DNA of 44,398 nucleotides from an uncultured Bdellovibrionales bacterium (GTDB lineage: Bacteria > Myxococcota > XYA12-FULL-58-9 > CAYHNK01). The notes under the pieces were generated by a model, which saw only the letters and a program-made list of their open reading frames with translations, had not been told where the DNA came from and did not search any database. Positions 3,667 to 44,398 of this stretch are shown here, piece after piece. The first letter of the stretch is position 1, and every line of letters starts with the position of its first letter. The position numbers and the translations under genes are program-made. The DNA lies in contig CAYHNK010000005.1 in NCBI GenBank assembly GCA_964357695.1, forward strand, positions 1 to 44,398, given 5' to 3'.

Positions 3667-3784
3667 CGGGTCCGTCTTGTAGCGCGAAATCCGACACGAC
3701 ACCAACGGCCGCAGCGCGCGGGGTTCTCGGACATGCGATCCTTCAGGTTAACCGCTCGCCTCGCATGGGCCGTTGTACGCAGTG

Positions 3785-13914: not shown

Positions 13915-13916
13915 TC

Positions 13917-15275
<1,359 letters not shown>

Positions 15276-29682: not shown

Positions 29683-29714
29683 GCTACACCTCACCGTTGA
29701 AACGTCGCGGTCGC

Positions 29715-31493
29715 TCAGTAGGGCGCCACCTCGTCGTTGATGCCGATCCCCGGCCGCGACCCCAGCGGCACCCCGCCCATGTTCTCGGCGCGGCAGAAGC
29801 CGTACTCCGGGGCGCTCTCGTGCACCGTGGCGTAGGGAATGCACACCTGCTCCGGTGCGGTGCGCAGCTTGCGGTAGAAACAGTACGGGCCGCGGATGGC
29901 CTGCCAGGTCACCGAGCCATCGGTGACGGTGCAGCCGGGCGCAGTGCACCAGGTGGGAGCTGAGCCGCCGCTCGTTCCCCCCACTGCGGCCGCATAGAGG
30001 AAGCAGTCGGCGTCGTCGGGTGCCGCGCACTGCGTCACCGGATCTGTGGTCGCACGCACGACGGCGCCAGCGCCATAGCCCGTGGAGCCAGCGCGAGTGC
30101 TCATCGGCGTACTGATCGCGGAGGGCTCGTCGAGATTGCCGCTCGTGCCGTAGTAGACATTGGCGCCTTCTTCCGCGCCGCTCTGCGCCCCGTCCTGGCT
30201 CTCGCCGCCGTCGATGACCACGTTGCAGCGCAGATCGCCACCCGAGCTCCACCACGCCACCCAGCCGCGTGACAGGTGGTGAGCCGTGGAACGATTCGTC
30301 GCAATGAGAGTATTGAGGTAGACGTCCGTCGTGTCAGCGCTCACATCGATCGCGTAGGTACCGGAGCTAACGCCCTTCATGTCGTAGATGAGATTGCCCG
30401 CGATCGACCAGCGGCTGGGCGTGAAGTTGGGTGTCGTGATCGCTTGCGTGCCGTCAAACAGAATGTTGTCGTGCACGAGGCCGTAGTCCGTGAACCCTCC
30501 TGAGAATGTGTGGAAAACGATCGACTCGCCGTAGGATCCATCAGCACAGGTGCCATCGGTGACTCGCTGGCCCCAGATACGATTGTGCACGACACGCACT
30601 GGGTCACTCGATGTGCCCCCGCCTTTCATGTCGATACCGTTCTCGGCGCAGGCGTAGTCGCCGCTCGGCGTGAGGTTGCCGCTGCCGTCCGAATAGTAGG
30701 CGGACGTGAGATAGATGTCGTTGTTCTCGATCACCGTACCGGCGAAGTCTTCCTGCGAGGCCAACTGCAGCAGCACGCCATCGGAACAGTTGTGCATCTC
30801 GTTGCTGACGACGCGATTGTGCTTCGCTGCGTAGTCCGCGACCACACAGGGGTGATCACCAACACCGAGAGGCCCCAGGCTCTTCATCAACGAGCCTTGC
30901 AGTGTCGAGCGCTGGCTGCCGCCCGCAAAGACGACGTTCCAGCCCTCCCGATTCTCGACCCAAACGCGTGAGAAGATGTTGTCGTTGCCGTTGCCAGAGC
31001 CATCCCCAGCGACGACCAGCTCATCCTGCGCGCTGCTCACCTTCAGGCGATGAATCACCCAAAAGTCCCCATGGACATGCAGCACGGCCAACAGCGCCTG
31101 GTTCACCGCGCTCTGCTGCCACGGCTGATCGTCGCTATCGCCGCTGCGAACGTAACGCAGCACCTTGCGGGTGTCGGCCGTGCCGCTCGACCCGAGCGTG
31201 AGCGTGCCGCGTCCAGTGTGGTCCCCCGCCTCGATGCAGATGACGCGGTTCGCCCAGTCGATCGCCGACCAATCATTCGTCGGCGCCGTGCTCGTGGTGA
31301 TGATCTGCTCGCACGCAAGCGCCGCAAGCCCCGCCACATCCACGTCACAGCGCGGGTTTCCGGCCTTGCACTCGTAGAGACTACAGTAGCAATTGGCGTC
31401 GGGCGTCTGCCACGACTCGGCGCAGGGTGGACATTGCGCCGACGCCACGCGTGCACTCGCCACGACGACAAGAATCGCAAACGCCCACTTCAT
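29715..31493 (-). CDS. Secreted Cys-capped right-handed beta-helix-like protein, paralogue A
   Basis: GGAGG RBS, MKWAFAILVVVASARVASA signal; N-cap CPPCAESWQTPDANCYC; Asn-ladder core (SNEMHNC, ENNDIY, HNRIWG, DNILFD, GNLIYD, LNTLI, CNVVID); C-cap AIRGPYC...DEVAPY. Confidence 0.9.
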   Translation of the reverse strand: MKWAFAILVVVASARVASAQCPPCAESWQTPDANCYCSLYECKAGNPRCDVDVAGLAALACEQIITTSTAPTNDWSAIDWANRVICIEAGDHTGRGTLTLGSSGTADTRKVLRYVRSGDSDDQPWQQSAVNQALLAVLHVHGDFWVIHRLKVSSAQDELVVAGDGSGNGNDNIFSRVWVENREGWNVVFAGGSQRSTLQGSLMKSLGPLGVGDHPCVVADYAAKHNRVVSNEMHNCSDGVLLQLASQEDFAGTVIENNDIYLTSAYYSDGSGNLTPSGDYACAENGIDMKGGGTSSDPVRVVHNRIWGQRVTDGTCADGSYGESIVFHTFSGGFTDYGLVHDNILFDGTQAITTPNFTPSRWSIAGNLIYDMKGVSSGTYAIDVSADTTDVYLNTLIATNRSTAHHLSRGWVAWWSSGGDLRCNVVIDGGESQDGAQSGAEEGANVYYGTSGNLDEPSAISTPMSTRAGSTGYGAGAVVRATTDPVTQCAAPDDADCFLYAAAVGGTSGGSAPTWCTAPGCTVTDGSVTWQAIRGPYCFYRKLRTAPEQVCIPYATVHESAPEYGFCRAENMGGVPLGSRPGIGINDEVAPY

Positions 31494-31565
31494 GACCGCA
31501 CCTCCGTCGATACCTTGCTCGCGCTCGAGGTGGACGAGTCGTCCCGCAAGAGCTACGTTGTACCT

Positions 31566-32153: not shown

Positions 32154-32158
32154 CGGCC

Positions 32159-33904
32159 TCACCACGGCGCCACCTCGTCGTTGATGCCGATACCGGGTCG
32201 CGAGCCGAGCGGCACCCCACCCATGTTCTCGGCCCGACAGAAGCCATACTCCGGCGCGCTCTCGTGCGGCACCGCGTAGGGGATACACACCTGCTCGGGG
32301 GCGGTGCGGAGCTTTCGCCAGAAGCAGTAGGGACCGCGAATGGCTTGCCAAGTGATGGTGCCGTCCGTCACGGACGCGCCCAACGTCGGTGCTATGGGGC
32401 GGACCGACCCCGTCGTTCCGGCCTGCGTGCAGCGCAAAATCGTGCCGCTGGTGCCGTCTTTGACGTGATTGCCGACGCTCATCACCGCCGCCGCACTCCA
32501 CGGGCGCAGATCGAGCGGCAGGTTCACGCCGGGGCTCTCGGTCGTATCGGCGCTGGTACCATAGAAGACGTTGTGGTCCAGCATCGTCCCGGGGCCAAGC
32601 CCGGCGAGCGAGTCGAGCGCAAGGGCATCGATGATGACGTTGCAGCGCACGTCGTCGTCGCTCGGTCCCCAGCTCGCCTGCAGCCAGTTGTCACCTTCCA
32701 CGATGGTGTTGAGGTAGAGCTCGGTGGTGTCGAAGCCGCCGTAGGTATTCCAGGTCGCCGGCGCCTCCGGGTCGCGCGTGCTCTCGGCCATGTCCCAGAA
32801 CAGATTGCCGACCACCGATAGGTGCTCGTTGCGCGGGAAGCCCGCACCGAGGCCAATGCCGCAGTCCCAGGCGATGTTGTCGCGAAACGACACCCAGTCC
32901 CCGCCCTGATGCCCGACGATCTCGGGCGCGTCGGGATTGCCGGACATACCGACGCTCATGGCGCTGCCGTCGCCGTTGAGCGCCAGCCCGACATTGGGAT
33001 CGCCCGTACGCGCTCCCCACAGACGATTGTGCACGATCAGCATCGCATCGCTCGCGTCGCCCCCTGCCTTGATCGAAATCAGATCCTCGGTCGCCGCGCA
33101 GGGGCCGACGCCGTTGTAGTTGCCGCTGCAATCCGTGTAGACGTCGAGCGATGCGTAGATGTCGTTGTTGTCGACAACGAGACCCGGATGTGAGTATGGG
33201 CCATTGCCGTTCGATACGCCTTTTTGGCAGTCGTAGATCTCGTTGTTGACGACGTGAAAGCGCGGGCCCTCGCCCACCTCGATGCACTGTGCTTCGAAGA
33301 AGGTGTTGGCGACGCTGCGGCGCACGACGCTGTTTTGCAGCGTGTTGTCGGGATTGCCGCTGCGCACCTGGATGAAATGGGCGACGGCATCCTGAAAGAG
33401 CAGCCGGTCAAAGACGAGGTTCGCGTTGCCGCCATCGGGCTCGCCCCACCCGCCGAAGGTGATCGCCGAGTTGATGTTGTCGCCTTGCGCATCGAAGGTG
33501 AGGCGATGCAACACCCAGTGGCTCGCTTGCCCGAAGACGATGGCCTGTAGCCGCGCGCGCGCCGACGGCTGCTGCCGCGCGGGATCGGCGCCATCGTCCC
33601 CGGCGCACGTGTACCTAAGCCAACGCGGCGCCAATGCAGTGCCAGAGGACGTGATCCAAAGTCTCCCTTTTCCGTAATGATCACCGCACTCGAGGCAGAT
33701 GACGCGCGCGCTGGGCTGGCCTTCGATAGCAGACCAGTCGGGGTCACTCGGGCGAACGGTCACCTCGCACGCCGGTGGCGTGCCGACATTCACCTCGTAC
33801 GCCGAGCAGTAGCCGTTGGCATCCGGGATTTGCCAGCTCTCGCACGGCGCGGCCCCCACACGCGCCGACGTCAGGGCTATGAACAAGGCACCCGTTCGCT
33901 TCAT
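32159..33904 (-). CDS. Secreted Cys-capped beta-helix-like protein, paralogue B (shorter, more divergent N-cap)
   Basis: Signal peptide; CESWQIPDANGYC, DWSAI, RVICLECGDH; same Asn-ladder core; C-cap AIRGPYCFWRKLRT...DEVAPW. Confidence 0.9.
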   Translation of the reverse strand: MKRTGALFIALTSARVGAAPCESWQIPDANGYCSAYEVNVGTPPACEVTVRPSDPDWSAIEGQPSARVICLECGDHYGKGRLWITSSGTALAPRWLRYTCAGDDGADPARQQPSARARLQAIVFGQASHWVLHRLTFDAQGDNINSAITFGGWGEPDGGNANLVFDRLLFQDAVAHFIQVRSGNPDNTLQNSVVRRSVANTFFEAQCIEVGEGPRFHVVNNEIYDCQKGVSNGNGPYSHPGLVVDNNDIYASLDVYTDCSGNYNGVGPCAATEDLISIKAGGDASDAMLIVHNRLWGARTGDPNVGLALNGDGSAMSVGMSGNPDAPEIVGHQGGDWVSFRDNIAWDCGIGLGAGFPRNEHLSVVGNLFWDMAESTRDPEAPATWNTYGGFDTTELYLNTIVEGDNWLQASWGPSDDDVRCNVIIDALALDSLAGLGPGTMLDHNVFYGTSADTTESPGVNLPLDLRPWSAAAVMSVGNHVKDGTSGTILRCTQAGTTGSVRPIAPTLGASVTDGTITWQAIRGPYCFWRKLRTAPEQVCIPYAVPHESAPEYGFCRAENMGGVPLGSRPGIGINDEVAPW

Positions 33905-33980
33905 GACCGCACCTCAGCTTGGCTTTGACGCCACGCCCCCACCATCTTGGTTGTTGTCGTCGCCCTCGCCGCCACACACG
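33905..33980 (-). pseudogene. Relic of the 3' end of a MYXO-CTERM partner gene
   Basis: Reads VCGGEGDDNNQDGGGVASKPS* against GGGNGDDRDGGGGVSKVSCGC in 43863..44398, and is joined directly to gaggtgcggtcatga. Confidence 0.6.
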
Positions 33981-33983
33981 CTA

Positions 33984-34002
33984 TCCGGCGCTTCGCGCCG
34001 GA
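33984..34002 (-). other. Perfect 8-bp GC stem with GAA loop downstream of paralogue C
   Basis: Plus strand tccggcgc-ttc-gcgccgga. Confidence 0.55.
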
Positions 34003-34044
34003 GGAGCCCATCAGCGGCCTGTCCACCCCGTGAGCTCGCGGGCG

Positions 34045-35835
34045 TCACCACGGCGCCACCTCGTCGTTGACGCCGATGCCAGGGCGCGACCCGAGCGGCA
34101 CCCCGCCCATATTGTCGGAGCGACAGAAGCCGTACTCCGGCGCGCTCTCGTGGGGCACGGCGTAGGGGATGCACACCTGCTCGGGTGTGGTGCGCAGCTT
34201 GCGATAGAAACAGTAGGGGCCGCGGATGGCCTGCCAGGTGACACCGCCGTCGGCGAAGGTACAGCCGAGGGTGGCGCAAGGCGTTGGCTGTGAGCTGGCA
34301 GAGGTCCCCGAATCGGTGACCTTGTACAAATAGCACTCAGGGTCTGTTGCGGCGATACACGCGGCGGCGGAAGTCGCGAGTCGCATCACGTCGTTCGCGG
34401 CGTACGCCGTCGAGTTGGCGCGCAGGTTCAGTGACTTGCTGACCCAGTCGACTTCCCCCGATGCGGGAGTGCCGTAGTAGACGGAGTGGTCGATCTCTGA
34501 GGACCCGCCGCCAAGCCCGGTCGCCTGGGGCGCGTCGATCGCCACGTTGCAGCGCACATCCAGGTTCGAGTTGCCTCCAAAGCTTCCCCATTCCTCGTCC
34601 GCCCCCGCGATGTCGACGAAGGTATTCAGGTAGATTTCGCTGCTCTCGACCGTCCCCTCCAGGATGATGCCAGCACCGGCGTCGTTCCCGTGCCGCTTGA
34701 TGTTGTAGATGACGTTGCCGGCGACAGAGACGTTGCTGGTGGTATGGTCGTAGGCGAACCAGCCAGCTCCGCTCGTGGCGTCGGAGATGATGTTATTCTG
34801 CAGCAGTACATAGTCGACCGGCGCTGACGCGTTGCCGTCCAGCGTGAGGGCCATGCCTCCCGTTCCGCCTCCGTCGCAGCACAGGGCGGTGTCCGTCGGG
34901 CGCTGACCCCAGATCCGGTTGCCGATGATCCGGTAGGGCGCGGACGGTGATCCCCCAGCTTTCGTACCCGCGCCTCCGTCTTCCGCCGCCGCGCAGGGAC
35001 CGCTGCCATTGAAGTTGCCCGCGCAGTCCGTGTAAACCGCGGTCGTGAGGTAGCTGTCGTTGTTCTCCACCACGGTGCCGGCTGCGCCGACCCCGGTCGC
35101 ATAGGTCCACATGCCGATGTTACAGTCGTACACCTCGTTGTTGACCGCACGCGCGTTCGGGCCGGCGCCCAGAATGATGCCGGAGTGGCTATTGCCATAC
35201 GAGTGTCGGCAGTTGCGAAGTAGCGAGCTCTGTATGGTTACGTCGACACCGCCAAGGCTGGCGGAAGCACCCGAGCCCCAGCTCGCGCCATAGTTCTCCA
35301 CCAGCACCCGGGAGAGGATGCTGTACGCGCCGCTGAGCGCCACGTGGTAGTCCTGGTCGGAGGATGAGTCGAAGGTGAGGCGGTGGACAACCCAGTAGTC
35401 CCCGAGCACATTGAGCTGCTGGAACTTCGCTTGGCTTGTGCCCGCTTGGCGCCACGGATCGTCATCGGCGTCTCCCTGTCGGTAGTAGCGCAGGATCTTG
35501 CGCGCTCCGGAGGTGCCGCTCGACCCGAGCGTGAGCGTGCCGCGTCCGGTGTGATCCCCCGCCTCGATGCAGATGACGCGGTGGGCCCAATCATCGATCG
35601 CCGACCAATCATTCGTCGGCGCTGTGCTCGTCGTGATGATCTGGTCACATGGCAACGCCGCCAGCCCGTCGACGTCGACATCACATCGTGGATTCCCCGC
35701 CTTGCACTCGTAGAGGGCGCAGTAGCAGTTGGCGTCCGGCGTCTGCCAAGACTCGGCGCACGGGGGACATTGCGCCGTGGCCACGCGCGCTATGGCTAGC
35801 ACCGCGATGGCAAGAAACGCCGACGCCCAGTTCAT
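34045..35835 (-). CDS. Secreted Cys-capped beta-helix-like protein, paralogue C
   Basis: MNWASAFLAIAVLAIARVATA signal; N-cap nearly identical to A and D; C-cap ends DEVAPW; ATG overlaps the stop of 35832..36857. Confidence 0.9.
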   Translation of the reverse strand: MNWASAFLAIAVLAIARVATAQCPPCAESWQTPDANCYCALYECKAGNPRCDVDVDGLAALPCDQIITTSTAPTNDWSAIDDWAHRVICIEAGDHTGRGTLTLGSSGTSGARKILRYYRQGDADDDPWRQAGTSQAKFQQLNVLGDYWVVHRLTFDSSSDQDYHVALSGAYSILSRVLVENYGASWGSGASASLGGVDVTIQSSLLRNCRHSYGNSHSGIILGAGPNARAVNNEVYDCNIGMWTYATGVGAAGTVVENNDSYLTTAVYTDCAGNFNGSGPCAAAEDGGAGTKAGGSPSAPYRIIGNRIWGQRPTDTALCCDGGGTGGMALTLDGNASAPVDYVLLQNNIISDATSGAGWFAYDHTTSNVSVAGNVIYNIKRHGNDAGAGIILEGTVESSEIYLNTFVDIAGADEEWGSFGGNSNLDVRCNVAIDAPQATGLGGGSSEIDHSVYYGTPASGEVDWVSKSLNLRANSTAYAANDVMRLATSAAACIAATDPECYLYKVTDSGTSASSQPTPCATLGCTFADGGVTWQAIRGPYCFYRKLRTTPEQVCIPYAVPHESAPEYGFCRSDNMGGVPLGSRPGIGVNDEVAPW

Positions 35836-36857
35836 GACCGCATGTCCCGGCGCCGACGTAGCGTCAACGCCAGCACCACACCCGCGAGCCACACGAGCAC
35901 GTCCGGGCCCGCCGATTGGCAGCCACAGCTCGGCTGCGACGGCGACCCACCCGTGCGCGTGCACCCAGGAAGAGCCACGTGCACGCAGGTCCCACCACAA
36001 CCATCCGCCTCGCCGCCGCAGGTCGACGCGCACACCGGCAGACACGGCGCCGTGCACATCACATGCAGCGCCATCGACGACCCCTGGTCGAACCGATCGA
36101 TGCCCGCGAACGTATCCGTCCCGGTCTCGTCGTCCATCATCACCGCCAGCGCGAAGCTCGTACCCCCGTCGCGCGCCGCCTCGAGATCTGCGAACGACGA
36201 CGAGGAGAGTGTGAAGGTCTTGACCCCCGTCGTGCGAAGGTCCGTCGTCGCCGCGACGTAGTTGTCGCTCGACACGTCACACGCGGCGTACATGGCGCTG
36301 CCGCTGTCGGTCTCGGGGTCACCGAGTCCGTCGCCACCGTAGGGACCTATCGACCAGGTCTTGGTACCGAGGCCCGCGGACACGTACGAGACGTTGAACG
36401 ACAGCTCGGCCGTCGCCACCTCTTGGTCCGCAGGCAAGGCGGAGATATCAAAGCGCATGCCGACCCGTAGGATGGTGCTCTGCGGCCCGGCCGAGTGCGC
36501 GGTCCAGCTGCCTTTGGTGCCGGTGTCCTCGACGTCGTTGCTGTAGGTGGCCGGCAACATGACATCACACGCGGACACGGTCGGAGTCTCGCAGGTGCCG
36601 CCTCCCGTGCAGCAGAGCGAGGCGCAGTCGGAGCCGCTCCCCAGGGTGCCACCCGTGCAGGTCTGACCGCTCGTGCAACAGACGCCGCTCTGCTCCGCGC
36701 AGGTCTGGCTCGGCACCGTGGCGGCACCGGCTTCGAGCGCGCCCGGCGTACCGGTGCGCGTTGTGCCGGCGAGATCGTAGTCGAAGATGTTGGCCAGCGC
36801 CGAGACGGGCGACAGCAGCGGGAGTGAACAAAGGCACAGCGCGACCTTGCGGTTCAT
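35832..36857 (-). CDS. Secreted MYXO-CTERM protein with Cys-rich linkers and a beta-sandwich (DNRLRE-like) domain; partner 1
   Basis: Signal MNRKVALCLCSLPLLSPVSALA; MRFDISALP....VATAELSF; SCGCQSAGPD-TM-RRRR. Confidence 0.85.
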   Translation of the reverse strand: MNRKVALCLCSLPLLSPVSALANIFDYDLAGTTRTGTPGALEAGAATVPSQTCAEQSGVCCTSGQTCTGGTLGSGSDCASLCCTGGGTCETPTVSACDVMLPATYSNDVEDTGTKGSWTAHSAGPQSTILRVGMRFDISALPADQEVATAELSFNVSYVSAGLGTKTWSIGPYGGDGLGDPETDSGSAMYAACDVSSDNYVAATTDLRTTGVKTFTLSSSSFADLEAARDGGTSFALAVMMDDETGTDTFAGIDRFDQGSSMALHVMCTAPCLPVCASTCGGEADGCGGTCVHVALPGCTRTGGSPSQPSCGCQSAGPDVLVWLAGVVLALTLRRRRDMRS

Positions 36858-36899
36858 CGGCAGCCTCACATGCTGGTTGCGGTCCATCTGACGTAGCGT

Positions 36900-36916
36900 A
36901 GCAGGAACGATGCCGT
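36900..36916 (-). promoter_or_regulatory. Putative sigma-54 promoter for partner 1 / paralogue C
   Basis: Minus strand ACGGCATCGTTCCTGCT = GG-N10-GC, ~43 bp upstream of the ATG; TGTAG-N8-CTACA dyad at ~36989-37006. Confidence 0.55.
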
Positions 36917-37032
36917 CCGGCCGCTCGTGCAATGTCGCGGGGTTACACTGTCGCACCGTGGGCGTTGCTGGGGCCTGCCGGCTACAGCTGTAGGGTCGCG
37001 GCTACAAGCGATGAGGTTCCCCGGGTGCGCCG

Positions 37033-40000
37033 CTAACGCCACACGACGCGAGTGCGAATATCCGCCCCCAACACTGTCACCGGCGCCGGTCCAACCACCG
37101 CGCTTGCGGTTACGTGCTCTTGTGGGATGAGCTCCAGCTGGAAGGCGTTGTCGTAGCCGGAGCGACTGCACGCGGCGACGCCGAGCGCCAGTGTTGTCAT
37201 GATGAGCGCCGAGCGCAGCCACCGTTGGCGCGAGGTGAGCCCCCCGGTAACGATCAGCACCAGCAGCCACACCGAGCTGTCCGGCGCTGCGGCGCAACCG
37301 CGCACGGCCGTGGGCGAGACAAAGTGCGCGACGAGCAGCCAATGCTCACCGACCGTCGCGGCGATGGTCGCGTTGGGCGCAAAGCGCCAGAGCGCGCCAT
37401 CGGTCTCGTCGGTGGCATCACCAAGGAGCACGTCCGCGGCGCTGAGACTGCCGTCCGCGTCGACGTCTCGATACAGCTCGATGCGTGCGGGAAGGCGAGC
37501 TGGCGGCATGGGATAGAGCCTTCGCCAGCGCATCGACTCGACGCGCACATCCAGCGGTACCTGACCGCTCACTTCGAGGCGCACAATGCCGAGGATGAGC
37601 GACTCGGATCCGCGGGCGCGCACGGCGTCGAGCTGCGCCCCCGACGTGACGCGCAACGCCGAATCATCGCCACTGCCGCCACAGGACGCGAGCGGCGCCC
37701 CGGCAAGGCAGACACCGGCGTCATCACAGCGCTCTTCACCGTTGCACGGATCGGCATCGCTGCACGACGTATCCACCGGAGCAGGTGGGTACACGCACGC
37801 ACCGGTGCCGGTGTCGCAGACACCGACCGCCACGCGGCACGCGCCGGGAGCGCTGTCGCAAACCACCGCGACGCCGTTGCCGCAATCACCCACCGCGTCG
37901 CAGATCTCACCCTCGGTACAGAGATCCCCGTCGTCGCAGTCTTCGCCCAGGCCCAGTCCGACGCACGGCTCGGGCGCGCCCGAGAGCACCTCGCTCGTGA
38001 GCAGCGGCACGCTCGCCGTGCTCATGTCACCCGACTCGAGCGCCAGCTCGAGAGTACGTGAGGCGGGCGTGACCACGTCGACCCACCACTCGAGGCGCAC
38101 GCGGTCGCCCGGCGGCAACGTCGTCGACGCACAGGGCACGGTGGCGCTCGGACACGCAACCGAATCCACGGACCGCGCCGGCACCACGATTCGCAATTCC
38201 GCCATCGTCGTCGCCGTGGTCGGCAACGTCGCCACATTGAGCGACGTGAGACGCTCGCTCTGAAAGATGAGCGCGCCGTCGCTATGCCGTTTGACCCGCG
38301 CAAAGAGGTAGGCTTCACCAGTGCCGGAGCCACCACTACTCTGACGTACGTCGGCGCGCAGCGTCCAGGTCCCACTCACGGCGGTGGGCGAAACAAAGCC
38401 TGCCGGCGTATAGACGTACTCAGCTGCCTGCCCCGGGCCGGGGCACAACAACTCGACTCTCGCGGCACCGGCTGCGCCAAGCGCCCGGCAGACGATCGTA
38501 TCGCGCTCGGACGCTACGTGACCACCCGCCGTACCACTCGGATGCTGGGTCGTCATGTCCCGCGTGGCGCCGCCGAGCGTGCTCTCGCGGTGCAGATACA
38601 GCTGCTCATGCGACCTGGCGATGCGCACGACCCGCGGGGCCGACATCTCGCCACCAACGAGCGCCTGCACCGCGTAGTAGCCTGCCGCGACCCCCGCGTC
38701 ACCGGGCACCGTGAACGTGACTCGATCCGCACCGAAGTCGCGGGCGTGCGTGAGCCGCCCGTCCCATACGCGGCCATCGGTGAGCGAGCGCAGCACGATG
38801 CGCGGCACGTCCCCCGGCGAGGCCGAGGTCGCGCCGCCGCTGCCCTCGGAGCAACCCAGCAACCGCGCGCCATAGGCCACGACAGTCGCCCCGGAAGGCC
38901 AAGGGTCAACCGGGAGCCCACGTCCGAGGAGCCCCAACACCGGCACACAGGCCGCGGGCGCAGTCGGGGCGGCCGACCACACCGAGACCGCGGCACTGCT
39001 ATCGCCGCCGGTGACATTGCCGCCGGCAAGCCACGCCCGGCCGTCGACGAGCACCTTGCCCCAAAGGTCGTAGCGCGGCACGGTGAGGATGCCCTGCTGC
39101 TGCCACGCGTCCGTCGCCGGGTCCCAGACATCGAGCGGCGCGACGTCGTAGGTGACGGAGGAGTCGTACCCGCCGCCGATGAGCATCCGGCCGTCCGGGA
39201 GCAGCATGGCGACATGATTGGTGCGCAGCTCCGCGGGAAGCGCCAGCGTGCTCCAGGTCCCTGTGGCCGGGCTCCATACTTCGGGCGGGTCACTGTTCAT
39301 GTAGTTGCCGACCGTCACCGCGCGCCCGTCGGCAAGCAATATCAGCGTGCCCCCCGTGTAGCTGCGGTCGCCGCTCGTGCTCCAGCGGCCCGAGCCGTCG
39401 TTGGCGCGCGGGTCCCACAGCTCAGTGCTCACGGGATTCGTGGCGACGCCATCCCAGCCGCCGGTGATGAGCACCCGACCGTCGTAGAGCAGCACGCTGG
39501 CGTGCTCCACGCGCGCCGCCGACATGGCGCCGGCGTCGCTGAAGCTGCCGACACCGCCCGCACCCTGAGGATCCCAGACCTCTGCTGATGCGAGCGCGGG
39601 CGCCGCACCGGTGCCGCCCACGACGAGCACGCGACCGTCGTGCAAAAGCACGCCAACCGCCGCCCCGCGCCCTTCGGCGAGCGACCCCGTGGCGCTCCAG
39701 GCCCCGGCGCCCGCGTTCGCCGAGGGGTCGAAGACCTCTGCCGAGCCGAGCTCTCCCGACGACCCGAGTCCTCCCGCCACCAGCACGCGGCCGTCCGCGA
39801 GCAGCACCACGGTGCCGCCGACCCGCCCCACGGACATCGACGGCAGGGCTGTCGCGATCTCGGAGGCCGGATCCCAAGCCTCCGCGGTGGCGAGCCGAGC
39901 GCCGCTCTGCGTGCTCGCACCGCCTGGGATCATCACCCGACCGTCGGGCAGCAGCGCCGCCTCCGTGCCGATCCAAGTGTCACGCGGCTCTGTCAAGCTG

Positions 40001-41133
40001 CCGCCCGCGGTCACCGTGGCGTCGTCGGCCGTCCACAGCTCGGCCGTAGCCGCAACACTCCCCGCGGCGCCGCCCCCAATGACCAGCACGCGCCCGCCCG
40101 GAAGCGTCGTTACCGTATGCTCTGAACGGGCGCTCACCACCGGCGTCTCTGGCGCAAAGTCACTCGTGCCGAGCCGCCACCGCTCGACGGCGGTCAGCGC
40201 GCCGCTGGCGTTGCGACCCCCGATGACCAGCACATCGCCGCCCGAGACAACACCCAGCGCATGCTCCCAGCGACCGACCGACAAGGCAGCCGCTGTTCCC
40301 CAGTTGCCGCTCGTGGGATCGCGAAGCTCCGCGGCGAGCACCGGCTGGCCGGCGCCGTCGACACCCCCCACGACCAGCGCGCGACCATCTCCCAGCAGCA
40401 CGCCGCCGTGGCGTGTGCGTGCGACCTGCAAGGATGGCGCCGCCTGCCAGGCGTTGCCCGTCACGTCCCAAAGCTCTACGCGATTGCTCGGTGACCCGAG
40501 CGCCCCACCTCCGGTGACCACCACGCGACCGTCCGCGAGGCGTATCGCCGCGGCACCCGGCTGGCGCTCGACCATTGGCCAGCTCGAGGTGGGACCGCCG
40601 CGCCCACCGTTAGCGAGCGGGTCCCAGATCTCGCTCCCAGCGCCGCTTCCTTCACCGCCAGCGAGCAACACCCGCCCATCTGGGAGGCGCGTCGCCGTAT
40701 GCGCATACCGGGCACCTCCAAGCGCGTCGGGCCCGAGGCTCCATGCGCCGATGCCAGGATCCCACAGCTCGTAGCTCGTGGCACTCGCGCCACTGGCGCC
40801 GTCTCCGCCGGCAACCAGAACACGCCCGTCGTAGAGCACAGTGGCCGTGTGCCAGCGCCGCGCCAGCGACATGGCGCCGGTGGGCAAAAATTGCCCCGTC
40901 GACGGACTCCAGAGCTCGCAGGTCGCGAGAACCGTGTCAGGCAGGCCCGGCACGTAGCCCCCGGCGATGAGAATACGCCCATCCGACAAGGCTGTTCCCG
41001 TATGCCCGCGCCGGCTCGCGCGCAAATTGCCGCTCGGCGCCCAGCTCCCCTGCCCCCGCGCAGTATCCGCAAGAGTACCTGCTACGGCGAGCGCCGCTAG
41101 GATATACGCTGCGCTTTGTCGCCCGCGCGTCAT
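37033..41133 (-). CDS. Large secreted Kelch-repeat (galactose-oxidase-like propeller) protein with Cys-rich repeats and an internal MYXO-CTERM-like segment
   Basis: More than 12 repeats of R..HTAT.L.DGRVLV.GG...E.WDP; CDDGDLCT...C repeats; RGCAAAPDSSVWLL near the C-terminus. Start MTRGRQ at 41133. Confidence 0.92.
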   Translation of the reverse strand: MTRGRQSAAYILAALAVAGTLADTARGQGSWAPSGNLRASRRGHTGTALSDGRILIAGGYVPGLPDTVLATCELWSPSTGQFLPTGAMSLARRWHTATVLYDGRVLVAGGDGASGASATSYELWDPGIGAWSLGPDALGGARYAHTATRLPDGRVLLAGGEGSGAGSEIWDPLANGGRGGPTSSWPMVERQPGAAAIRLADGRVVVTGGGALGSPSNRVELWDVTGNAWQAAPSLQVARTRHGGVLLGDGRALVVGGVDGAGQPVLAAELRDPTSGNWGTAAALSVGRWEHALGVVSGGDVLVIGGRNASGALTAVERWRLGTSDFAPETPVVSARSEHTVTTLPGGRVLVIGGGAAGSVAATAELWTADDATVTAGGSLTEPRDTWIGTEAALLPDGRVMIPGGASTQSGARLATAEAWDPASEIATALPSMSVGRVGGTVVLLADGRVLVAGGLGSSGELGSAEVFDPSANAGAGAWSATGSLAEGRGAAVGVLLHDGRVLVVGGTGAAPALASAEVWDPQGAGGVGSFSDAGAMSAARVEHASVLLYDGRVLITGGWDGVATNPVSTELWDPRANDGSGRWSTSGDRSYTGGTLILLADGRAVTVGNYMNSDPPEVWSPATGTWSTLALPAELRTNHVAMLLPDGRMLIGGGYDSSVTYDVAPLDVWDPATDAWQQQGILTVPRYDLWGKVLVDGRAWLAGGNVTGGDSSAAVSVWSAAPTAPAACVPVLGLLGRGLPVDPWPSGATVVAYGARLLGCSEGSGGATSASPGDVPRIVLRSLTDGRVWDGRLTHARDFGADRVTFTVPGDAGVAAGYYAVQALVGGEMSAPRVVRIARSHEQLYLHRESTLGGATRDMTTQHPSGTAGGHVASERDTIVCRALGAAGAARVELLCPGPGQAAEYVYTPAGFVSPTAVSGTWTLRADVRQSSGGSGTGEAYLFARVKRHSDGALIFQSERLTSLNVATLPTTATTMAELRIVVPARSVDSVACPSATVPCASTTLPPGDRVRLEWWVDVVTPASRTLELALESGDMSTASVPLLTSEVLSGAPEPCVGLGLGEDCDDGDLCTEGEICDAVGDCGNGVAVVCDSAPGACRVAVGVCDTGTGACVYPPAPVDTSCSDADPCNGEERCDDAGVCLAGAPLASCGGSGDDSALRVTSGAQLDAVRARGSESLILGIVRLEVSGQVPLDVRVESMRWRRLYPMPPARLPARIELYRDVDADGSLSAADVLLGDATDETDGALWRFAPNATIAATVGEHWLLVAHFVSPTAVRGCAAAPDSSVWLLVLIVTGGLTSRQRWLRSALIMTTLALGVAACSRSGYDNAFQLELIPQEHVTASAVVGPAPVTVLGADIRTRVVWR

Positions 41134-41164
41134 CGCGCTCCAATCGTACACGAAGCCGCGCCCC

Positions 41165-41183
41165 CTACCATGGCGCCACCTCG
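41165..41183 (-). repeat. Orphan copy of the paralogue 3' terminus (EVAPW-stop)
   Basis: accatggcgccacctcg (41167-41183) matches the end of paralogues B and C (accacggcgccacctcg) at 16/17, with an in-frame TAG. Confidence 0.65.
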
Positions 41184-41198
41184 CGACCCAGGCACGCC

Positions 41199-41234
41199 TT
41201 GCACATTGTGCGTTTGCCGCGTACATATTTACGT
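41199..41234 (+). promoter_or_regulatory. Putative sigma-70 promoter/operator of the TA operon (possibly leaderless)
   Basis: TTGCAC-N17-TACATA ends 7 nt before the ATG; no SD; dyads gcaca-t-tgtgc and cata-N6-tatg. Confidence 0.45.
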
Positions 41235-41495
41235 ATGCGCACGACCATAGAGCTGTCAGACGCGCTCGCTTCCCGCGTGCGTGCATTCATGAAGAAGCGG
41301 CGCACGACGCTGCGCGCCGTGGTCGAGATGGGGATCGAACGCGTGTTGGACGAGCAAGCGCCGACGCGTGGTTTCGAGCTCCGAGAGGCGTCGTTCAGTG
41401 GCAAGCCCGGGTTCGCACCAGGCGTCACGGCCGACGACGTCCCCCAGATCATTCGGGAGCTCAACGACCCTACTGCACGCCGCATCGATGCATGA
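41235..41495 (+). CDS. vapB: VapB-like antitoxin (ribbon-helix-helix)
   Basis: MRTTIELSDAL....R......TLRAVVE.GI pattern; 86 aa; ATGA overlap with the PIN toxin. Confidence 0.85.
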   Translation: MRTTIELSDALASRVRAFMKKRRTTLRAVVEMGIERVLDEQAPTRGFELREASFSGKPGFAPGVTADDVPQIIRELNDPTARRIDA

Positions 41496-41932
41496 TCGCC
41501 ATCGACACCAACATTCTGGTCTATGCCCACCGGCCCGAGTGCCCGTTCCATGCGCAGGCCAAGCGCTGCGTCGAGGGCCTCGCCCGCTCGGGTCAGCCCT
41601 TCGGTATGCCCGTTCACTGTCTCATCGAGTTTGTCGGCGTCGTCAGCCACCCGCGCGTCTGGGCACAACCGTCGTCTGCGCGCGACATCATCGAGCAGGT
41701 CGAGGCGTGGCTCGAAGTACCGGCGCTGCGTCTGCTGGCCGAAGACGCGGAGTTCTGGGGCAGCTTTCGCGACGCACTGCGCACCGCACGACCGACCGGC
41801 GGCGCTGTGCACGACGCGCGGATCGCGGCCTGCTGTCGCTACCACGGCATTCGTGAGCTGTGGAGTGCCGATCGGGACTTCAGTCGCTACGACTGGTTGC
41901 ACACGAGAAATCCACTCCTCGAGGATGGCTGA
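41492..41932 (+). CDS. vapC: VapC PIN-domain ribonuclease toxin
   Basis: MIAIDTNILVYAH, EF, VHDARIAA, SADRDF PIN acidic motifs. Confidence 0.94.
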   Translation: MIAIDTNILVYAHRPECPFHAQAKRCVEGLARSGQPFGMPVHCLIEFVGVVSHPRVWAQPSSARDIIEQVEAWLEVPALRLLAEDAEFWGSFRDALRTARPTGGAVHDARIAACCRYHGIRELWSADRDFSRYDWLHTRNPLLEDG

Positions 41933-42057
41933 CGCGCCGAGACGTGCCCGTCGGATGCGTCCCCTGCGTCGCTGGCGAAGCACGCGGTCGTGCTGTCGCG
42001 ACTCGAGCGGCGTAGAAACCGCCGGCACCGCGGCCACACGGACCGAGAGAGTCTGCC

Positions 42058-43866
42058 TCACCACGGAGCCACCTCATCGTTGATGCCGATGCCTGTTCGC
42101 GAACCGAGCGGCACACCGCCCATGTTCTCCGCCCGACAAAAGCCATACTCGGGCGCGCTCTCGTGCGGCACCGCGTAGGGGATGCACACCTGCTCGGGGT
42201 TGGTGCGTAGCTTGCGATAGAAGCAGTACGGGCCACGGATGGCTTGCACGGTCACGGTGCCGTCCTGGGTGGTGCAGCCGAGGGTGGTGCAGTAGGCGGG
42301 TGCGGAGGCCGCAGAGGTGCCGGCACTGGTGACTCGATACAAGAGGCAAGCCTGATCCCCCACGCTCGCGCAGTCGCTTTCGGGGTTGCTGCTGGTGCGA
42401 ATCACGTCGCCGACATCATACGCGTGCGCGCCGACTCTGAGGTTGAGCGCGAGGTCGCCGACCTTGTGCCCTTCACCGCTGTCGGGCGTTCCATAGTACG
42501 CGTTGTATCCGTACTCGAAGCCGTCGCCGTCTCCGCCGCTCTTTTCGCCGGAGTCGATGGCAACGTTGCAGCGTAGATCAATGTCGGCGGCAGTACTGCT
42601 CGCAAGCCAGAGCCAGTGGTCACATCTAACAATCGTGTTTAGATAGTACTCGGCCCGTTGCATGCGCCAGAAGCTGAGGCCCCCCACACCGATGGTGTTT
42701 TCGATGGAAGGGCGGATCCGGTACATCATGTTGCCGGCGAACGTGTTGTATTCCGGTCCGTTCCAATAGTTGTCGATGCCCCCGACGGAGTCGAAGCAAA
42801 CGTTGTTCTCCACTAGCAGATGCGACGTGCCGGCGCCGTCGGGAGGCTGGACACCATACGAGCCACCGGCGCTGACAGACATGCACATCGCGTCACTGGC
42901 TTGCGCAATACTGCTGTCGACGTGCCGTCCGCCCCACATCCTGTTGTACATGAAGATCATTGGATTGCCGGAGGTCGACGACCCGTCCTTTAGGCTGACA
43001 ATGGCCTCCGAAATCCCACACGGGCCGTTGGGCTGAATGTTGCCGCTGCAATCCGTATAGCGAGAGGCGTCGTCGTACAGATCATTGTTCTCGACAATCA
43101 TGCCGTCGCTGTCTTGGTCCTGCTGGGAAAACACCTCCTTGTTACACCGATAGATTTCGTTGCTGACGACATGAGAGTTGGTACTCCAGGAGCTGGTAAT
43201 GCAGTCATTCTCGAGGGTATTGCTCACTTGTGAATCCCGCAGGACACTATTCTGCATCGTGTTGCCTGACGGAGCGTCTGCGGGCCCACTCGTCCCAACG
43301 AAATAGACCAGATCGTCGGCGGCGTGCTGTACGAGTAGGCGATTGGCGATATTGTCGGCGGCGCCCGTGTCAAACCACAGCGTCGCGCCCGCGTGGTAGT
43401 TGTTGTCGAGCGTGAGGCGGTGCATCAACCAGTACTTCTGTCCATTGAGATGGATCCTCGCGATCACCGCCTGACTCGCGACGGATTGGTGCCATGGATC
43501 GTCGTCCGTGTCGCCCGCGCGATAGTAACGCAGCACGCTGCGCACGCCTGCCGTACCGCTAGCCGTAGGCGTCAGCGTGCCGCGCCCCGTGTGATCCCCC
43601 GCCTCGATGCAGATCACCCGATTCGACCAGTCGATCGCCGACCAATCGTTGCTCGGCGCCGTGCTCGTCGTGATCGTCTGGTCACACGGCAGCGCCGCCA
43701 GACCGTCGACGTCCACGTCGCACCGCGGATTCCCCGCCTTGCACTCATAGAGCGCGCAGTAGCAGTTAGCGTCCGGGGTCTGCCAGGACTCGGCGCAGGG
43801 AGGACATTGCGCCGCGGCCACACGCCCGGTTGCCAACGCCACGAAGAACGCGACTGTCCACTTCAT
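42058..43866 (-). CDS. Secreted Cys-capped beta-helix-like protein, paralogue D
   Basis: MKWTVAFFVALATGRVAAA signal; same N-cap and C-cap; ATG overlaps the stop of 43863..44398. Confidence 0.9.
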   Translation of the reverse strand: MKWTVAFFVALATGRVAAAQCPPCAESWQTPDANCYCALYECKAGNPRCDVDVDGLAALPCDQTITTSTAPSNDWSAIDWSNRVICIEAGDHTGRGTLTPTASGTAGVRSVLRYYRAGDTDDDPWHQSVASQAVIARIHLNGQKYWLMHRLTLDNNYHAGATLWFDTGAADNIANRLLVQHAADDLVYFVGTSGPADAPSGNTMQNSVLRDSQVSNTLENDCITSSWSTNSHVVSNEIYRCNKEVFSQQDQDSDGMIVENNDLYDDASRYTDCSGNIQPNGPCGISEAIVSLKDGSSTSGNPMIFMYNRMWGGRHVDSSIAQASDAMCMSVSAGGSYGVQPPDGAGTSHLLVENNVCFDSVGGIDNYWNGPEYNTFAGNMMYRIRPSIENTIGVGGLSFWRMQRAEYYLNTIVRCDHWLWLASSTAADIDLRCNVAIDSGEKSGGDGDGFEYGYNAYYGTPDSGEGHKVGDLALNLRVGAHAYDVGDVIRTSSNPESDCASVGDQACLLYRVTSAGTSAASAPAYCTTLGCTTQDGTVTVQAIRGPYCFYRKLRTNPEQVCIPYAVPHESAPEYGFCRAENMGGVPLGSRTGIGINDEVAPW

Positions 43867-44398
43867 GACCGCACCTCCCGGCGTCGCCGCAACACCATCA
43901 CGAGCGCCGCACCCGCCAGCCACACGAACGAGTCCGGACCCGCCGACGTGCAGCCGCAGCTCACCTTCGACACACCGCCGCCCCCATCGCGGTCATCACC
44001 GTTTCCGCCCCCCGTGTCACCTCCACCGTTCGCGCACGTCACATGCAGCGCCATCGACGACCCTTGATCAAATCGGTCGATGCCCGCGAACGTGTCGGTG
44101 CCCGTTTCGTCGTCCATCATGACAGCCACGGAGAAGCTCGTGCCAGCGTCTCGCGCCGCCGTCAGGTCCGCGAACGCCTGTGCCCCCAGCGTGAAGGTCT
44201 TGGCCCCCGTCGTACGCAGGTCGGTCGTGTCGCTGACATAGTTGTCGCTCGACACGTCGCACGCGGCGTACATGGCGCTGCCCGTATCGGTCTCGGGATC
44301 GGAGAGCCCGTCGCCGCCATACGCACCTATCGACCAGGTCTTGGTGTCGAGGCCCGCCGACACGTAGTTGACGTTGAACGACACCTCCGCCGTGGCGA
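43863..44398 (-). CDS. MYXO-CTERM partner 2 (5' part outside window), paralogue of 35832..36857
   Basis: ATAEVSFNVNYVSAGLDTKTWSIG...MMDDETGTDTFAGIDRFDQGSSMALHV is nearly identical to partner 1; SCGCTSAGPD-TM-RRRR. Confidence 0.88.
   Translation of the reverse strand, partial: ATAEVSFNVNYVSAGLDTKTWSIGAYGGDGLSDPETDTGSAMYAACDVSSDNYVSDTTDLRTTGAKTFTLGAQAFADLTAARDAGTSFSVAVMMDDETGTDTFAGIDRFDQGSSMALHVTCANGGGDTGGGNGDDRDGGGGVSKVSCGCTSAGPDSFVWLAGAALVMVLRRRREVRS

Follow-up and report, generated by a model that had tools for sequence, protein, structure and literature searches.

A predicted surface-anchored CBM96-like protein encoded stop-to-start with unanchored beta-helix proteins in an uncultured Bdellovibrionales bacterium: a candidate in-trans glycan-enzyme system

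In the polysaccharide utilisation loci of Bacteroidota, a lipid-anchored, non-catalytic glycan-binding protein is co-expressed with enzymes and works in trans alongside them on a single substrate. In the cohesin-dockerin cellulosome, one anchored protein serves several interchangeable enzymes that have common conserved ends. To our knowledge, little is known about MYXO-CTERM sorting beyond TraA. In the available part of the literature, TraA is presented as the prototype of MYXO-CTERM/myxosortase (MrtX) surface sorting, and the MYXO-CTERM tail is described as tripartite: a signature containing an invariant Cys is combined with a TM helix and a cytoplasmic end rich in Arg (PMC11980579). CBM96/DNRLRE modules, according to the accessible text of another report, are found on alginate, hyaluronate, and pectate lyases (PMC9971899).

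The window, the whole stretch of 44,398 nucleotides analyzed here, contains an array of beta-helix genes (A to D) interleaved with MYXO-CTERM genes, all on the minus strand; the genome has six beta-helix paralogs in total (A to F). We refer to the MYXO-CTERM proteins encoded next to C, D, and E as partners PC, PD, and PE. The main features are as follows:

29715..31493, minus strand: beta-helix paralog A, 592 aa; Sec signal peptide, no anchor, no partner gene upstream
32159..33904, minus strand: beta-helix paralog B, 581 aa; more diverged than any other copy
33905..34044, minus strand: C-B spacer, 140 nt; remnant of a deleted partner-type MYXO-CTERM gene (alignment against shuffles), with Cys-rich linker codons, 'GVASKPS', and a final EVRS-stop
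34045..35835, minus strand: beta-helix paralog C, 596 aa (AlphaFold2 model, Pfam, paralog alignment)
35832..35835, minus strand: ATGA in which the stop of PC and the start of C overlap
35832..36857, minus strand: partner PC, 341 aa; in order, signal peptide, m2, Cys-rich stretch, CBM96-like core, Cys-rich linker, MYXO-CTERM tail
35835..35927, minus strand: MYXO-CTERM sorting tail of PC (SCGCQSAGPD, TM helix, RRRRDMRS; TIGR03901, 20.7 bits)
36048..36575, minus strand: CBM96-like beta-sandwich core of PC, residues 95-270 (predicted fold)
36732..36788, minus strand: m2 motif at the mature N-terminus of PC, IFDYDLAGTTRTGTPGALE
36858..37045, minus strand: conserved leader of ~190 nt before PC
36900..36914, minus strand: sigma-54-like -24/-12 element GGCATCGTTCCTGCT within the conserved leader
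42058..43866, minus strand: beta-helix paralog D, 602 aa
43863..44398, minus strand: partner PD, of which the contig end leaves only the 3' half; ATGA overlap with the D start at 43863-43866

The arrangement is that of the Bacteroidota glycan-binding proteins, with a predicted anchored lectin beside enzymes; however, the phylum, the folds, and the anchor differ (a C-terminal MYXO-CTERM tail versus an N-terminal lipobox), and no TonB-dependent transporter is paired with the partner in the window. The logic would also resemble that of cohesin-dockerin systems, in which one anchored protein serves several enzymes with conserved ends, but here the conserved ends are family-wide rather than system-specific. 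As in the MYXO-CTERM/TraA system, the partner closes with a Cys-containing signature (SCGCQSAGPD) followed by a hydrophobic helix and a stretch rich in Arg, and processing and lipidation of its tail are predicted; unlike TraA, it carries a CBM96-like module, preceded by m2 at the N-terminus, and its gene is joined stop-to-start with the gene of an unanchored beta-helix protein.

Both overlaps described in the original prediction, which had noted two MYXO-CTERM genes running into a beta-helix start by ATGA, were confirmed: the stop codon TGA of PC (35832-35834) overlaps the ATG of C (35835-35833), and PD and D overlap in the same way. Elsewhere in the genome, an ATGA overlap joins F to the gene of a CBM6 MYXO-CTERM protein, and a TGATG overlap joins PE and E. 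In four of the six beta-helix paralogs the start codon thus overlaps a MYXO-CTERM stop codon, and each of the four pairs has the geometry of translationally coupled genes, the stop overlapping or abutting the next start on one strand. The further claim that all four starts in the window lie within the last codons of a partner stood only in part. The exact start context TGCGGTCATGAA is indeed present at all four genes (positions 31489, 33900, 35831, and 43862, all on the minus strand); it occurred on average 0.14 times in the shuffled window, four copies were reached in none of 100 shuffles, and it is absent from the rest of the 4.8-Mb genome. Because the genes are paralogs, this identity reflects common descent rather than independent events. 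At A and B, however, the common upstream context extends over only 16-17 nt (GAGGTGCGGTCATGAA) and includes a Shine-Dalgarno-like GGAGGTG, and therefore represents a ribosome-binding site and start rather than live partner codons.

Judging from alignments, B keeps a relic of the 3' end of a lost partner-type gene: the C-B spacer matches PE at 24 of 24 nt and the CBM6 MYXO-CTERM gene at 28 of 32 nt, with scores (48 and 37, respectively) that exceed those of every shuffle (maxima 30 and 34). A partner-type relic was also sought upstream of A, and none was found there. Another m2-bearing partner, PG, has no beta-helix gene downstream. The MYXO-CTERM protein upstream of F has a different body, composed of CBM6 and a domain of ~480 aa; it resembles the partner in its leader, signal peptide, Cys-rich linker, and tail, but in nothing else. 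The leader, which contains GGCAYCGTTCCTGCT, is conserved upstream of PC, PE, PG, and the CBM6 MYXO-CTERM gene; there are exactly four copies of GGCAYCGTTCCTGCT genome-wide, all upstream of MYXO-CTERM genes of this group. We take its promoter-like element to match the sigma-54 -24/-12 consensus, and sigma-54 may control an mRNA that carries both the anchor gene and the beta-helix gene.

The C-terminal ends of PC (SCGCQSAGPDVLVWLAGVVLALTLRRRRDMRS) and PD (SCGCTSAGPDSFVWLAGAALVMVLRRRREVRS) both show the tripartite organization of a MYXO-CTERM tail. In a genome search with TIGR03901 (cut-off 20 bits), PC, PE, and the CBM6 protein scored 20.7, 20.8, and 22.1 bits, respectively; whole-protein scans gave 18.5 bits for PC and 13.6 bits for the PD fragment. 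The genome holds 16 MYXO-CTERM tails and one MrtX-like CPBP protease (NF040593; G000:C264), which scored 114 bits against a cut-off of 180; control genomes likewise gave hits below this cut-off. The beta-helix proteins have a cleavable Sec-type signal peptide and end in ...GIGINDEVAPW; in agreement with the original prediction, inspection of their sequences revealed no TM segment, sorting tail, or lipobox.

The partner is strongly conserved between the two units, as had been proposed: a fixed offset of 7980 aligns positions 36061-36418 with 44041-44398, and identity is 81% over these 358 nt, whereas the remaining sequence of the units is ~30% identical at that offset, and the PC and PD proteins are 76% identical. 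Among partners, dN is 0.08-0.20 at dS of 0.5-1.1. The AlphaFold2 model of the PC core (pLDDT 96.6) has a beta-sandwich fold; its best PDB match is a chondroitinase CBM that binds chondroitin sulfate (8WAB; TM 0.70, E 1.6e-6), followed by an alginate-binding CBM96 (7VBO; TM 0.53), and its look-alikes in the Atlas are CBM96 clusters. The corresponding profiles capture the family poorly: PC and PD had no match at E<=0.1 to Pfam PF24517 (CBM96) or NCBIfam NF033679, PC is below every Pfam or NCBIfam CBM model, Pfam CBM96 is matched by 4 of 95 core-family members, and one member (P0117) matched DNRLRE_dom weakly (16.4 bits, cut-off 34). On its predicted structure, the conserved domain of the partner is a CBM96-like carbohydrate-binding module and not a scaffold fold, and the partner probably binds glycans. 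It had been likened to a cohesin/dockerin scaffold, an idea that does not fit this core: Pfam detected no cohesin or dockerin in six proteins, and no cohesin was among the fold matches listed. The beta-sandwich fold is common to the PC core and CBM96/DNRLRE modules, and the literature, as far as available, has such modules joined to beta-helix or lyase enzymes; here, however, the core belongs to a separate surface-anchored protein instead of being an appended domain.

On the predicted structure, the beta-helix proteins form a widespread, undescribed family with a polysaccharide-lyase-like fold. The model of C is a right-handed parallel beta-helix (pLDDT 90.2, pTM 0.91) with a conserved N-cap and a C-terminal domain of ~70 aa that ends in motif m1 (GSRPGIGVNDEVAPW). 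In a Foldseek comparison, the model came closest to PL6 alginate lyases and chondroitinase B, PL9, tailspike depolymerases, and AlgG; the matches also include an alginate epimerase/lyase. There are 50 PDB matches at E<=1e-3, and nearly all of those listed are beta-helix enzymes or tailspikes. These matches are generic (TM 0.3-0.5, 8-15% identity), so that a lyase, a hydrolase, an epimerase, and even an adhesin look alike at this level; we consider an enzymatic activity probable. Pfam Beta_helix (PF13229) recognizes C (27.4 bits, cut-off 25.9), gives a non-significant 13.3 bits for A, and does not match B or D. The family has the overall fold and Asn ladder of the beta-helix polysaccharide lyases (PL6, PL9, AlgG, tailspikes) and similarly carbohydrate-related genomic company, but it differs from them in its Cys-rich N-cap, ~70-aa C-terminal domain, and m1 tail. 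The sequences contain conserved NNExY, ENNDxY, and HNRxWG blocks, and one relative bears two CBM6/CBM35 modules.

Divergence of the coupled cores was borne out: identity among the six paralogs is 18-41% per 30-column window in the core (dN 0.6-0.9), compared with 59-73% in the first ~120 columns and 86-92% in the last ~65. Cap dN is 0.05-0.2 among A, C, D, E, and F, and only B has a diverged N-terminal cap (dN 0.44-0.58). These invariant caps had been interpreted as a specific dock for the partner. However, they are conserved throughout the family, including in partner-free genomes, and cap invariance is therefore no pointer to a lineage-specific dock. Nor do the two families co-occur across genomes as anticipated; they are distributed independently, with 113 beta-helix clusters, many in genomes that lack the partner, against 5 partner clusters, and the core domain is present in 286 proteins. 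Pfam and NCBIfam have no model for the beta-helix family (>100 clusters), the CBM96-like domain family (about 290 proteins), or m2.

Nevertheless, the two proteins are linked, by a fusion, by cis-anchored relatives, and by the placement of m2, a motif with the consensus (I/L)(F/A)xxDLxGxxR-x3-6-(T)(P/M)GALE. Cis-anchored relatives read ...GIGINDDVASW-PGGAG-ILSADLEGRPRLGTPGALE-linker-MYXO-CTERM, with m2 directly following the C-terminus of the beta-helix, and the predicted mature N-terminus of the partner, NIFDYDLAGTTRTGTPGALE, begins with m2. The motif is found C-terminal to the beta-helix domain in cis (three times in L029, and in L067 and P0043), N-terminal to this domain in cis, behind a lipobox and linker (P0021, P0026, and L048), and in a separate upstream lipoprotein (L019 and seven related loci); m2-only lipoproteins, consisting of an anchor and the peptide, also occur. 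Although m2 is strongly conserved at the free N-terminus of the partner, the explanation that we prefer assigns no role to it. The fusion was found on a metagenomic contig (L051), where a signal peptide, FN3, the core domain, FN3, and the beta-helix share one frame, the same association as that reported for CBM96 modules in the text available to us. Its translation is the sole protein with both domains among those searched, as none was found among 113 beta-helix matches or the 150 core-domain proteins listed.

Since relatives are anchored in cis or fused to a CBM96-like domain, the window would encode an anchored, CBM-assisted glycan-active enzyme split into parts that act in trans, with one mRNA giving both a surface lectin and enzymes that are released. 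We give this reading a probability of about one half. A conserved leader with a sigma-54-type promoter-like element would precede each anchor gene, and, with the beta-helix gene beginning on the stop codon of the anchor gene, one mRNA could yield both proteins, translation of the enzyme being coupled to that of the lectin. The lectin, lipid-anchored at the cell surface, would hold the polysaccharide, and the tail-less beta-helix enzymes, with their diverged substrate-facing cores, would cross the outer membrane and leave the cell unanchored, docking not being obligatory. A single conserved lectin could serve several enzymes, A and B included. In relatives, the cis anchor is either a C-terminal m2-linker-MYXO-CTERM tail or an N-terminal lipobox-linker-m2 segment, or else the beta-helix is fused to a CBM96-like domain. 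The unit of an anchored partner and a beta-helix protein proposed originally is thus real and recurrent, as seen in the overlaps at four of six paralogs, the relic at B, the L051 fusion, and the cis anchors; the docking mechanism attached to it did not find support. The genome also encodes other glycan-active proteins in the neighborhood (an apiosidase-like GH, the CBM6 protein, GH44, a GDSL esterase, and a BNR/CBM9 protein). The lectin does not diversify with the enzymes, as it should if they shared substrates one-to-one, and its conservation alongside diverging enzymes fits a common dock as well as a common polymer.

Such a dock might be provided by m2: we regard it as possible, though doubtful, that the N-terminal m2 of the partner binds the C-terminal domain and m1 of any paralog non-covalently, with a contact outside the CBM96-like domain replacing the covalent m1-m2 junction of the cis relatives, and with A and B using the same anchors. 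The ends of the two proteins match as the halves of a split site, m2 adjoins the beta-helix in three arrangements (cis C-terminal, cis N-terminal, and separate lipoprotein), the bare m2 lipoproteins would suit a tether, and partners and caps are under purifying selection while cores diverge. Moreover, close beta-helix homologs occur in five genomes (G000, G061, G062, G063, and G089), each of which has m2, and among 60 relatives of G000 neither m2 (0/60) nor the beta-helix (0/60) was found. On the other hand, of nine m2-positive genomes among 41 relatives of G061, seven lack the beta-helix family, which means that m2 is not dedicated to it. Only one of four m2 genes adjoins a beta-helix gene in G061, the sole m2 gene of G062 is on another contig, and 47 of 60 foreign beta-helix loci lacked m2, although many of these loci are short and flank length was unfiltered. 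The architecture of m2, Pro-rich linker, and CBM96-like core recurs in proteins with no known beta-helix link, PG carries m2 with no beta-helix gene after it, and the caps are conserved also where no m2 gene is nearby. The broader idea that m2 is a portable tether peptide on a lipid-anchored carrier (the MYXO-CTERM lectin here, a lipoprotein or a bare lipobox-linker-m2 stub elsewhere) and plugs into the beta-helix C-terminal domain seems a shade more doubtful still; if true, it would constitute a split-domain docking system for diderm surface enzymes with cohesin-dockerin-like logic, in which A to F share few anchors.

The same facts about PG, together with the coupling of F to a MYXO-CTERM protein of a different body, also speak for an unlikely alternative, in which the overlap was inherited from tandem cis-anchored units, any MYXO-CTERM gene may fill the upstream slot, and the pairing has no function beyond co-transcription. 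In L029 and L067, each anchored beta-helix unit runs directly into the next at all three junctions, and A and B are intact with no partner, the partner-type gene upstream of B having been deleted. However, the overlap and its Shine-Dalgarno-like context were kept exactly at dS of 0.4-0.9, both types of upstream protein (the partner and the CBM6 protein) are predicted carbohydrate binders, a consistent theme and not what a random occupant would give, and L051 shows that the two domains work jointly at least once. We find it improbable that the proteins act on the cell's own exopolysaccharide, with the beta-helix proteins serving as AlgG/AlgL-like epimerases or lyases, either periplasmic or surface-located, and the partner binding that polymer to the cell surface. 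AlgG and the alginate epimerase/lyase are among the fold matches, and in Sulfuricaulis (L019) and a Burkholderiales MAG (L016) the family is found amid genes for UDP-glucose dehydrogenase, a heparinase II/III-like protein, GT4 transferases, a Wzy-like polymerase, and an asparagine synthase nearest to the XrtA/PEP-CTERM amidotransferase (584 bits, cut-off 817); for these exopolysaccharide biosynthesis loci in other phyla, the context suggests that a polymer of the cell itself is modified and not degraded. In contrast, the window and contig C36 encode glycoside-hydrolase-like and CBM proteins and no glycosyltransferase, polymerase, or export gene, and six diverged paralogs suit many substrates better than one polymer.

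On our preferred reading, a surface lectin made together with released enzymes, the gene of a MYXO-CTERM lectin would be firmly joined to those of secreted enzymes that belong to a diversifying family. Relatives of the beta-helix domain are held by a MYXO-CTERM tail at the C-terminus, by a lipid anchor at the N-terminus, or by no anchor. These three solutions may form a natural series in which to study when bacteria with a predatory or saprophytic life keep a glycan enzyme on their surface and when they release it.

The window corresponds to contig C5 of a genome of 4.8 Mb assembled in 481 contigs (G+C 62-71%). It carries four paralogous beta-helix genes and two copies of a partner gene, which encodes a MYXO-CTERM-anchored protein with a CBM96-like core:

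29715-31493, minus strand, beta-helix paralog A
32159-33904, minus strand, beta-helix paralog B
34045-35835, minus strand, beta-helix paralog C
42058-43866, minus strand, beta-helix paralog D
35832-36857, upstream of C, partner copy PC
43863-44398, upstream of D, partner copy PD, cut by the contig end

The ATGA overlaps noted in the original prediction, between the PC stop and the C start and between the PD stop and the D start, were confirmed. Two further paralogs, E and F, are located on contig C36 of the same genome: E begins one base into the stop codon of PE, a third copy of the partner, and F shares an ATGA, stop to start, with the gene of a distinct MYXO-CTERM protein bearing a CBM6 module. 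Thus, four of the six beta-helix genes have their start on a MYXO-CTERM gene's stop codon. The fourth partner copy, PG, is split across contigs C252 and C376 and appears in one piece in protein P0116; no beta-helix gene is found downstream of it. The same partner sequence (ATAEVSFNVNYVSAGLD) occurs at three contig breaks, namely at 44340-44398 of the window, at the high-coordinate end of C376, and at the low-coordinate end of C252; the repeat was collapsed in the assembly, which lacks the 5' half of PD.

All four paralogs in the window share an exact start context, TGCGGTCATGAA, which occurs there in four copies against 0.14 expected (none of 100 shuffles reached four) and nowhere else in the genome. 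The claim that this context represents the last codons of the partner stands for C and D, whereas A and B share only 16-17 nt with them, a stretch that includes the Shine-Dalgarno-like GGAGGTG. In the 140-nt C-B spacer, 24/24 nt match the Cys-rich linker of PE and 28/32 nt match the "GVAPKPSCGC" segment of the CBM6 MYXO-CTERM gene, both scoring above all shuffles; therefore, B formerly had an upstream partner-type gene, which has since been deleted. No such relic exceeding shuffles was detected upstream of A or downstream of D, A, or E. A Uma2-family endonuclease gene (31050-32153, plus strand), opposite in strand and placed between A and B, and a PIN-domain gene (40967-41932, plus strand) between D and a Kelch-repeat gene seem to have been inserted into the array.

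In order, PC has a signal peptide, the motif m2 (NIFDYDLAGTTRTGTPGALE), a Cys-rich stretch, and the core (residues ~95-270), followed by a Cys-rich linker and finally a MYXO-CTERM tail, which scores 20.7 bits in a genome search and 18.5 bits in a whole-protein scan (cut-off 20). Its tripartite form is the one described for MYXO-CTERM (PMC11980579). The genome encodes 16 such tails and one MrtX-like protease, the latter below its cut-off. Strong conservation of the partner is borne out by an identity of 81% between 36061-36418 and 44041-44398, aligned at the predicted offset, and by a dN of 0.08-0.20 at a dS of 0.5-1.1 among paralogs. The partner had been proposed to be a surface scaffold; instead, for the core as modelled with AlphaFold2 (pLDDT 96.6), the top match is a chondroitin-sulfate-binding CBM (8WAB, TM 0.70), followed by an alginate-binding CBM96 (7VBO) and TGF-beta-type prodomains. 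A protein Atlas look-up leads to CBM96 clusters, Pfam CBM96 is matched by 4 of 95 core relatives, and one protein, P0117, weakly matches DNRLRE_dom, a domain related to CBM96 and reported in alginate, hyaluronate, and pectate lyases (PMC9971899). On this likeness, the conserved domain has a carbohydrate-binding-module-like fold rather than a scaffold fold. Searches of PDB sequences with the core-family profile returned only antibody light chains (E>0.6), and a PHROGs scan of the core and four relatives gave nothing meaningful. Full-length relatives of the partner form only 5 clusters and none occurs in 60 relatives of the window's genome; the core alone, used as a profile, retrieves 286 proteins, many of them stand-alone and ~200 aa long.

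Reading of the beta-helix sequences bears out that they have neither a lipobox nor a C-terminal tail; each has a Sec-type signal peptide, all three features being called by the usual rules. Across the six paralogs, per-window identity is 59-73% in the first ~120 columns, 18-41% in the core, and 86-92% in the last ~65 columns. The ends of A, C, D, E, and F have a dS of 0.4-0.9 with a low dN (0.05-0.2) and are thus maintained by purifying selection; recent gene conversion as the source of these invariant ends is rejected on the same dS, with dN at about 0.1. The N-terminal cap (conserved end) of B has diverged (dN 0.44-0.58), and the cores show a dN of 0.6-0.9. Only C passes the Pfam Beta_helix cut-off, and a PHROGs scan of C gave nothing meaningful. 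The AlphaFold2 model is a right-handed beta-helix (pLDDT 90.2), with PL6 alginate lyases, chondroitinase B, PL9, tailspike depolymerases, and AlgG as the best PDB matches, all at low identity.

The beta-helix family comprises 113 clusters at E<=1e-3 and is not lineage-specific: cluster records are labelled Sulfurifustis, Sulfuricaulis, and Patescibacteria, more homologs lie on Burkholderiales MAG contigs, and none was found in 60 relatives of the window's genome (21 of the same order and 39 of the same phylum). Foreign relatives keep both the N-cap (ADxNGYxAxYECRAGGPxCNVDV) and the C-cap (AIRGPYxFYRKLRTxPE...IPYA...GSRxGIGI), as well as the motifs NNExY, ENNDxY, and HNRxWG, and one relative carries CBM6/CBM35 modules. 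This large family has no family model and is new here.

We scanned 60 foreign beta-helix loci, 8 from genomes and 52 from metagenomes, with all flank lengths included. The core domain was found in one, L051, where a signal peptide, FN3, the core, FN3, and the beta-helix are in one frame. Its translation is the sole protein with both domains among those examined (0/113 beta-helix matches and 0/150 core-domain proteins among the matches listed). At L051:895-1000, an m1-like motif (GDRPGIGINDDIYP), usually the C-terminal tail of the beta-helix, directly follows the signal peptide of the fusion. In two other loci, L029 with three units and L067 with two, the beta-helix does not end at m1 but runs on into m2, then a linker rich in Gly, Asp, and Pro, and finally a MYXO-CTERM tail; TIGR03901 scores of these tails are over the cut-off in two cases (24.0 and 20.7) and under it in three (18.6, 17.4, and 17.3). 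Successive units share one stop-free frame (L029:2-5956 and L067:2-3700, both plus strand), and at 3/3 junctions the Arg-rich end of the tail leads into the next signal peptide with no stop codon between them. In principle, such frames could be polytopic polyproteins, cuttable into units by myxosortase and signal peptidase. Proteins P0021 and P0026 and locus L048 have a lipobox, a long linker, and m2 before the N-cap, and in L019 and seven related loci a separate lipoprotein encoded upstream carries m2 and then an FN3-like body.

Strong m2 matches were present in 13 of the 60 foreign loci, and m2 was found in 0/60 relatives of the window's genome. Among 41 genomes around genome G061, nine have m2 and two have the beta-helix family, both of these with m2; the family is absent from seven of the nine. 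Other m2 proteins are small lipoproteins, some stopping 2-6 residues past GALE, and still others have m2, a Pro-rich linker, and a CBM96-like core with no anchor. This spread makes m2 a portable module, often but not exclusively beside this beta-helix family. The anchorless proteins, found in other lineages, also weaken an origin of the partner by a split of the beta-helix gene in this lineage. Some small lipoprotein ORFs stop at TAG two residues after GALE, and the m2 model match extends across it, as read-through, a frameshift, or chance might produce; ORFs ending at TAG are G062:C14:10879-10962, G063:C72:1595-1678, G089:C1:186289-186375, and those in loci L081 and L082. By eye, m2 appears similar to the motif D..G..R...IGAYE, for which a regular expression gave 14 matches in the genome, 12 of which lie no more than about 25 residues before their open frame ends. 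About ten large open frames of the window's genome (350-823 aa) end in ...D(I/F)xGxxRPxPPAIGAYEP or alike, a canonical m2 relative (contigs with such ends: C22, C63, C99, C157, C189, C228, C374, C413, and C459).

PC, PE, PG, and the CBM6 MYXO-CTERM gene share an upstream stretch of ~190 nt (76% identity) that contains GGCAYCGTTCCTGCT, which has only four copies genome-wide. This sequence fits the sigma-54 -24/-12 spacing and is a candidate promoter element. Also in the window are genes for two sigma-54-dependent response regulators (2260-3705, minus strand; 13911-15275, plus strand). Counts of sigma-70 promoters and terminators in 29400-44398 were not above shuffles.

Neighboring genes encode an apiosidase-like GH, a CBM6 protein, GH44, a GDSL esterase, and a BNR/CBM9 MYXO-CTERM-like protein. 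Two more secreted proteins are encoded downstream of the array (24309-27416 and 27610-29600, both minus strand): a BNR/sortilin-like protein that has CBM9 and a MYXO-CTERM-like tail scoring 14.5 bits, below the cut-off, and a Cys-rich DUF4215-repeat protein. The 1417-aa Kelch-repeat ORF (37033-41286, minus strand) has near its end a MYXO-CTERM-like stretch (GCAAAPD, a hydrophobic helix, and RQR), recognized by reading alone, with no NCBIfam MYXO-CTERM match; in the same frame follow a lipoprotein-type signal (MTTLALGVAAC), ~45 more residues, and a stop.

The reading that we favor, at a probability of about 0.5, is a surface lectin with released enzymes, an in-trans version of an anchored, CBM-assisted glycan-active enzyme. 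A putative sigma-54-type promoter-like element would stand ahead of the lectin gene, and the gene of the unanchored enzyme would be translationally coupled to it. The enzyme would probably leave the cell, by analogy with TraA, which is released when its tail is lacking (PMC11980579). The neighboring genes fit a role in carbohydrate handling. Tethering of the beta-helix through m2 is less probable. In its favor, the beta-helices of the window end at the residue where cis forms continue, and the predicted mature N-terminus of the partner starts at m2; against it, m2 is also found away from the family. A complex prediction for mature C (22-596) and PC (23-305), each with an alignment, scored 0.00 and is neutral on binding.

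That the overlap is a relic junction with no present partnership seems improbable; the loss of the partner-type gene upstream of B speaks for it, and the exact retention of the overlaps and the L051 fusion speak against it. Least probable in our judgment is remodelling of the cell's own exopolysaccharide, favored by the position of the family gene within exopolysaccharide loci in Sulfuricaulis and one Burkholderiales MAG and disfavored by the carbohydrate-type genes of other kinds around the array here.

MYXO-CTERM sorting, CBM96-like modules, and beta-helix glycan enzymes were already known. The m2 motif may be counted as new here; a literature text search on m2-type motif words gave only author names and unrelated papers among the matches listed. 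Also new are the welded lectin-enzyme unit and a natural series in which anchoring is in cis, in trans, or by fusion. A single conserved lectin with diverging enzymes would fit equally a complex common polymer cut at different linkages and a common dock.
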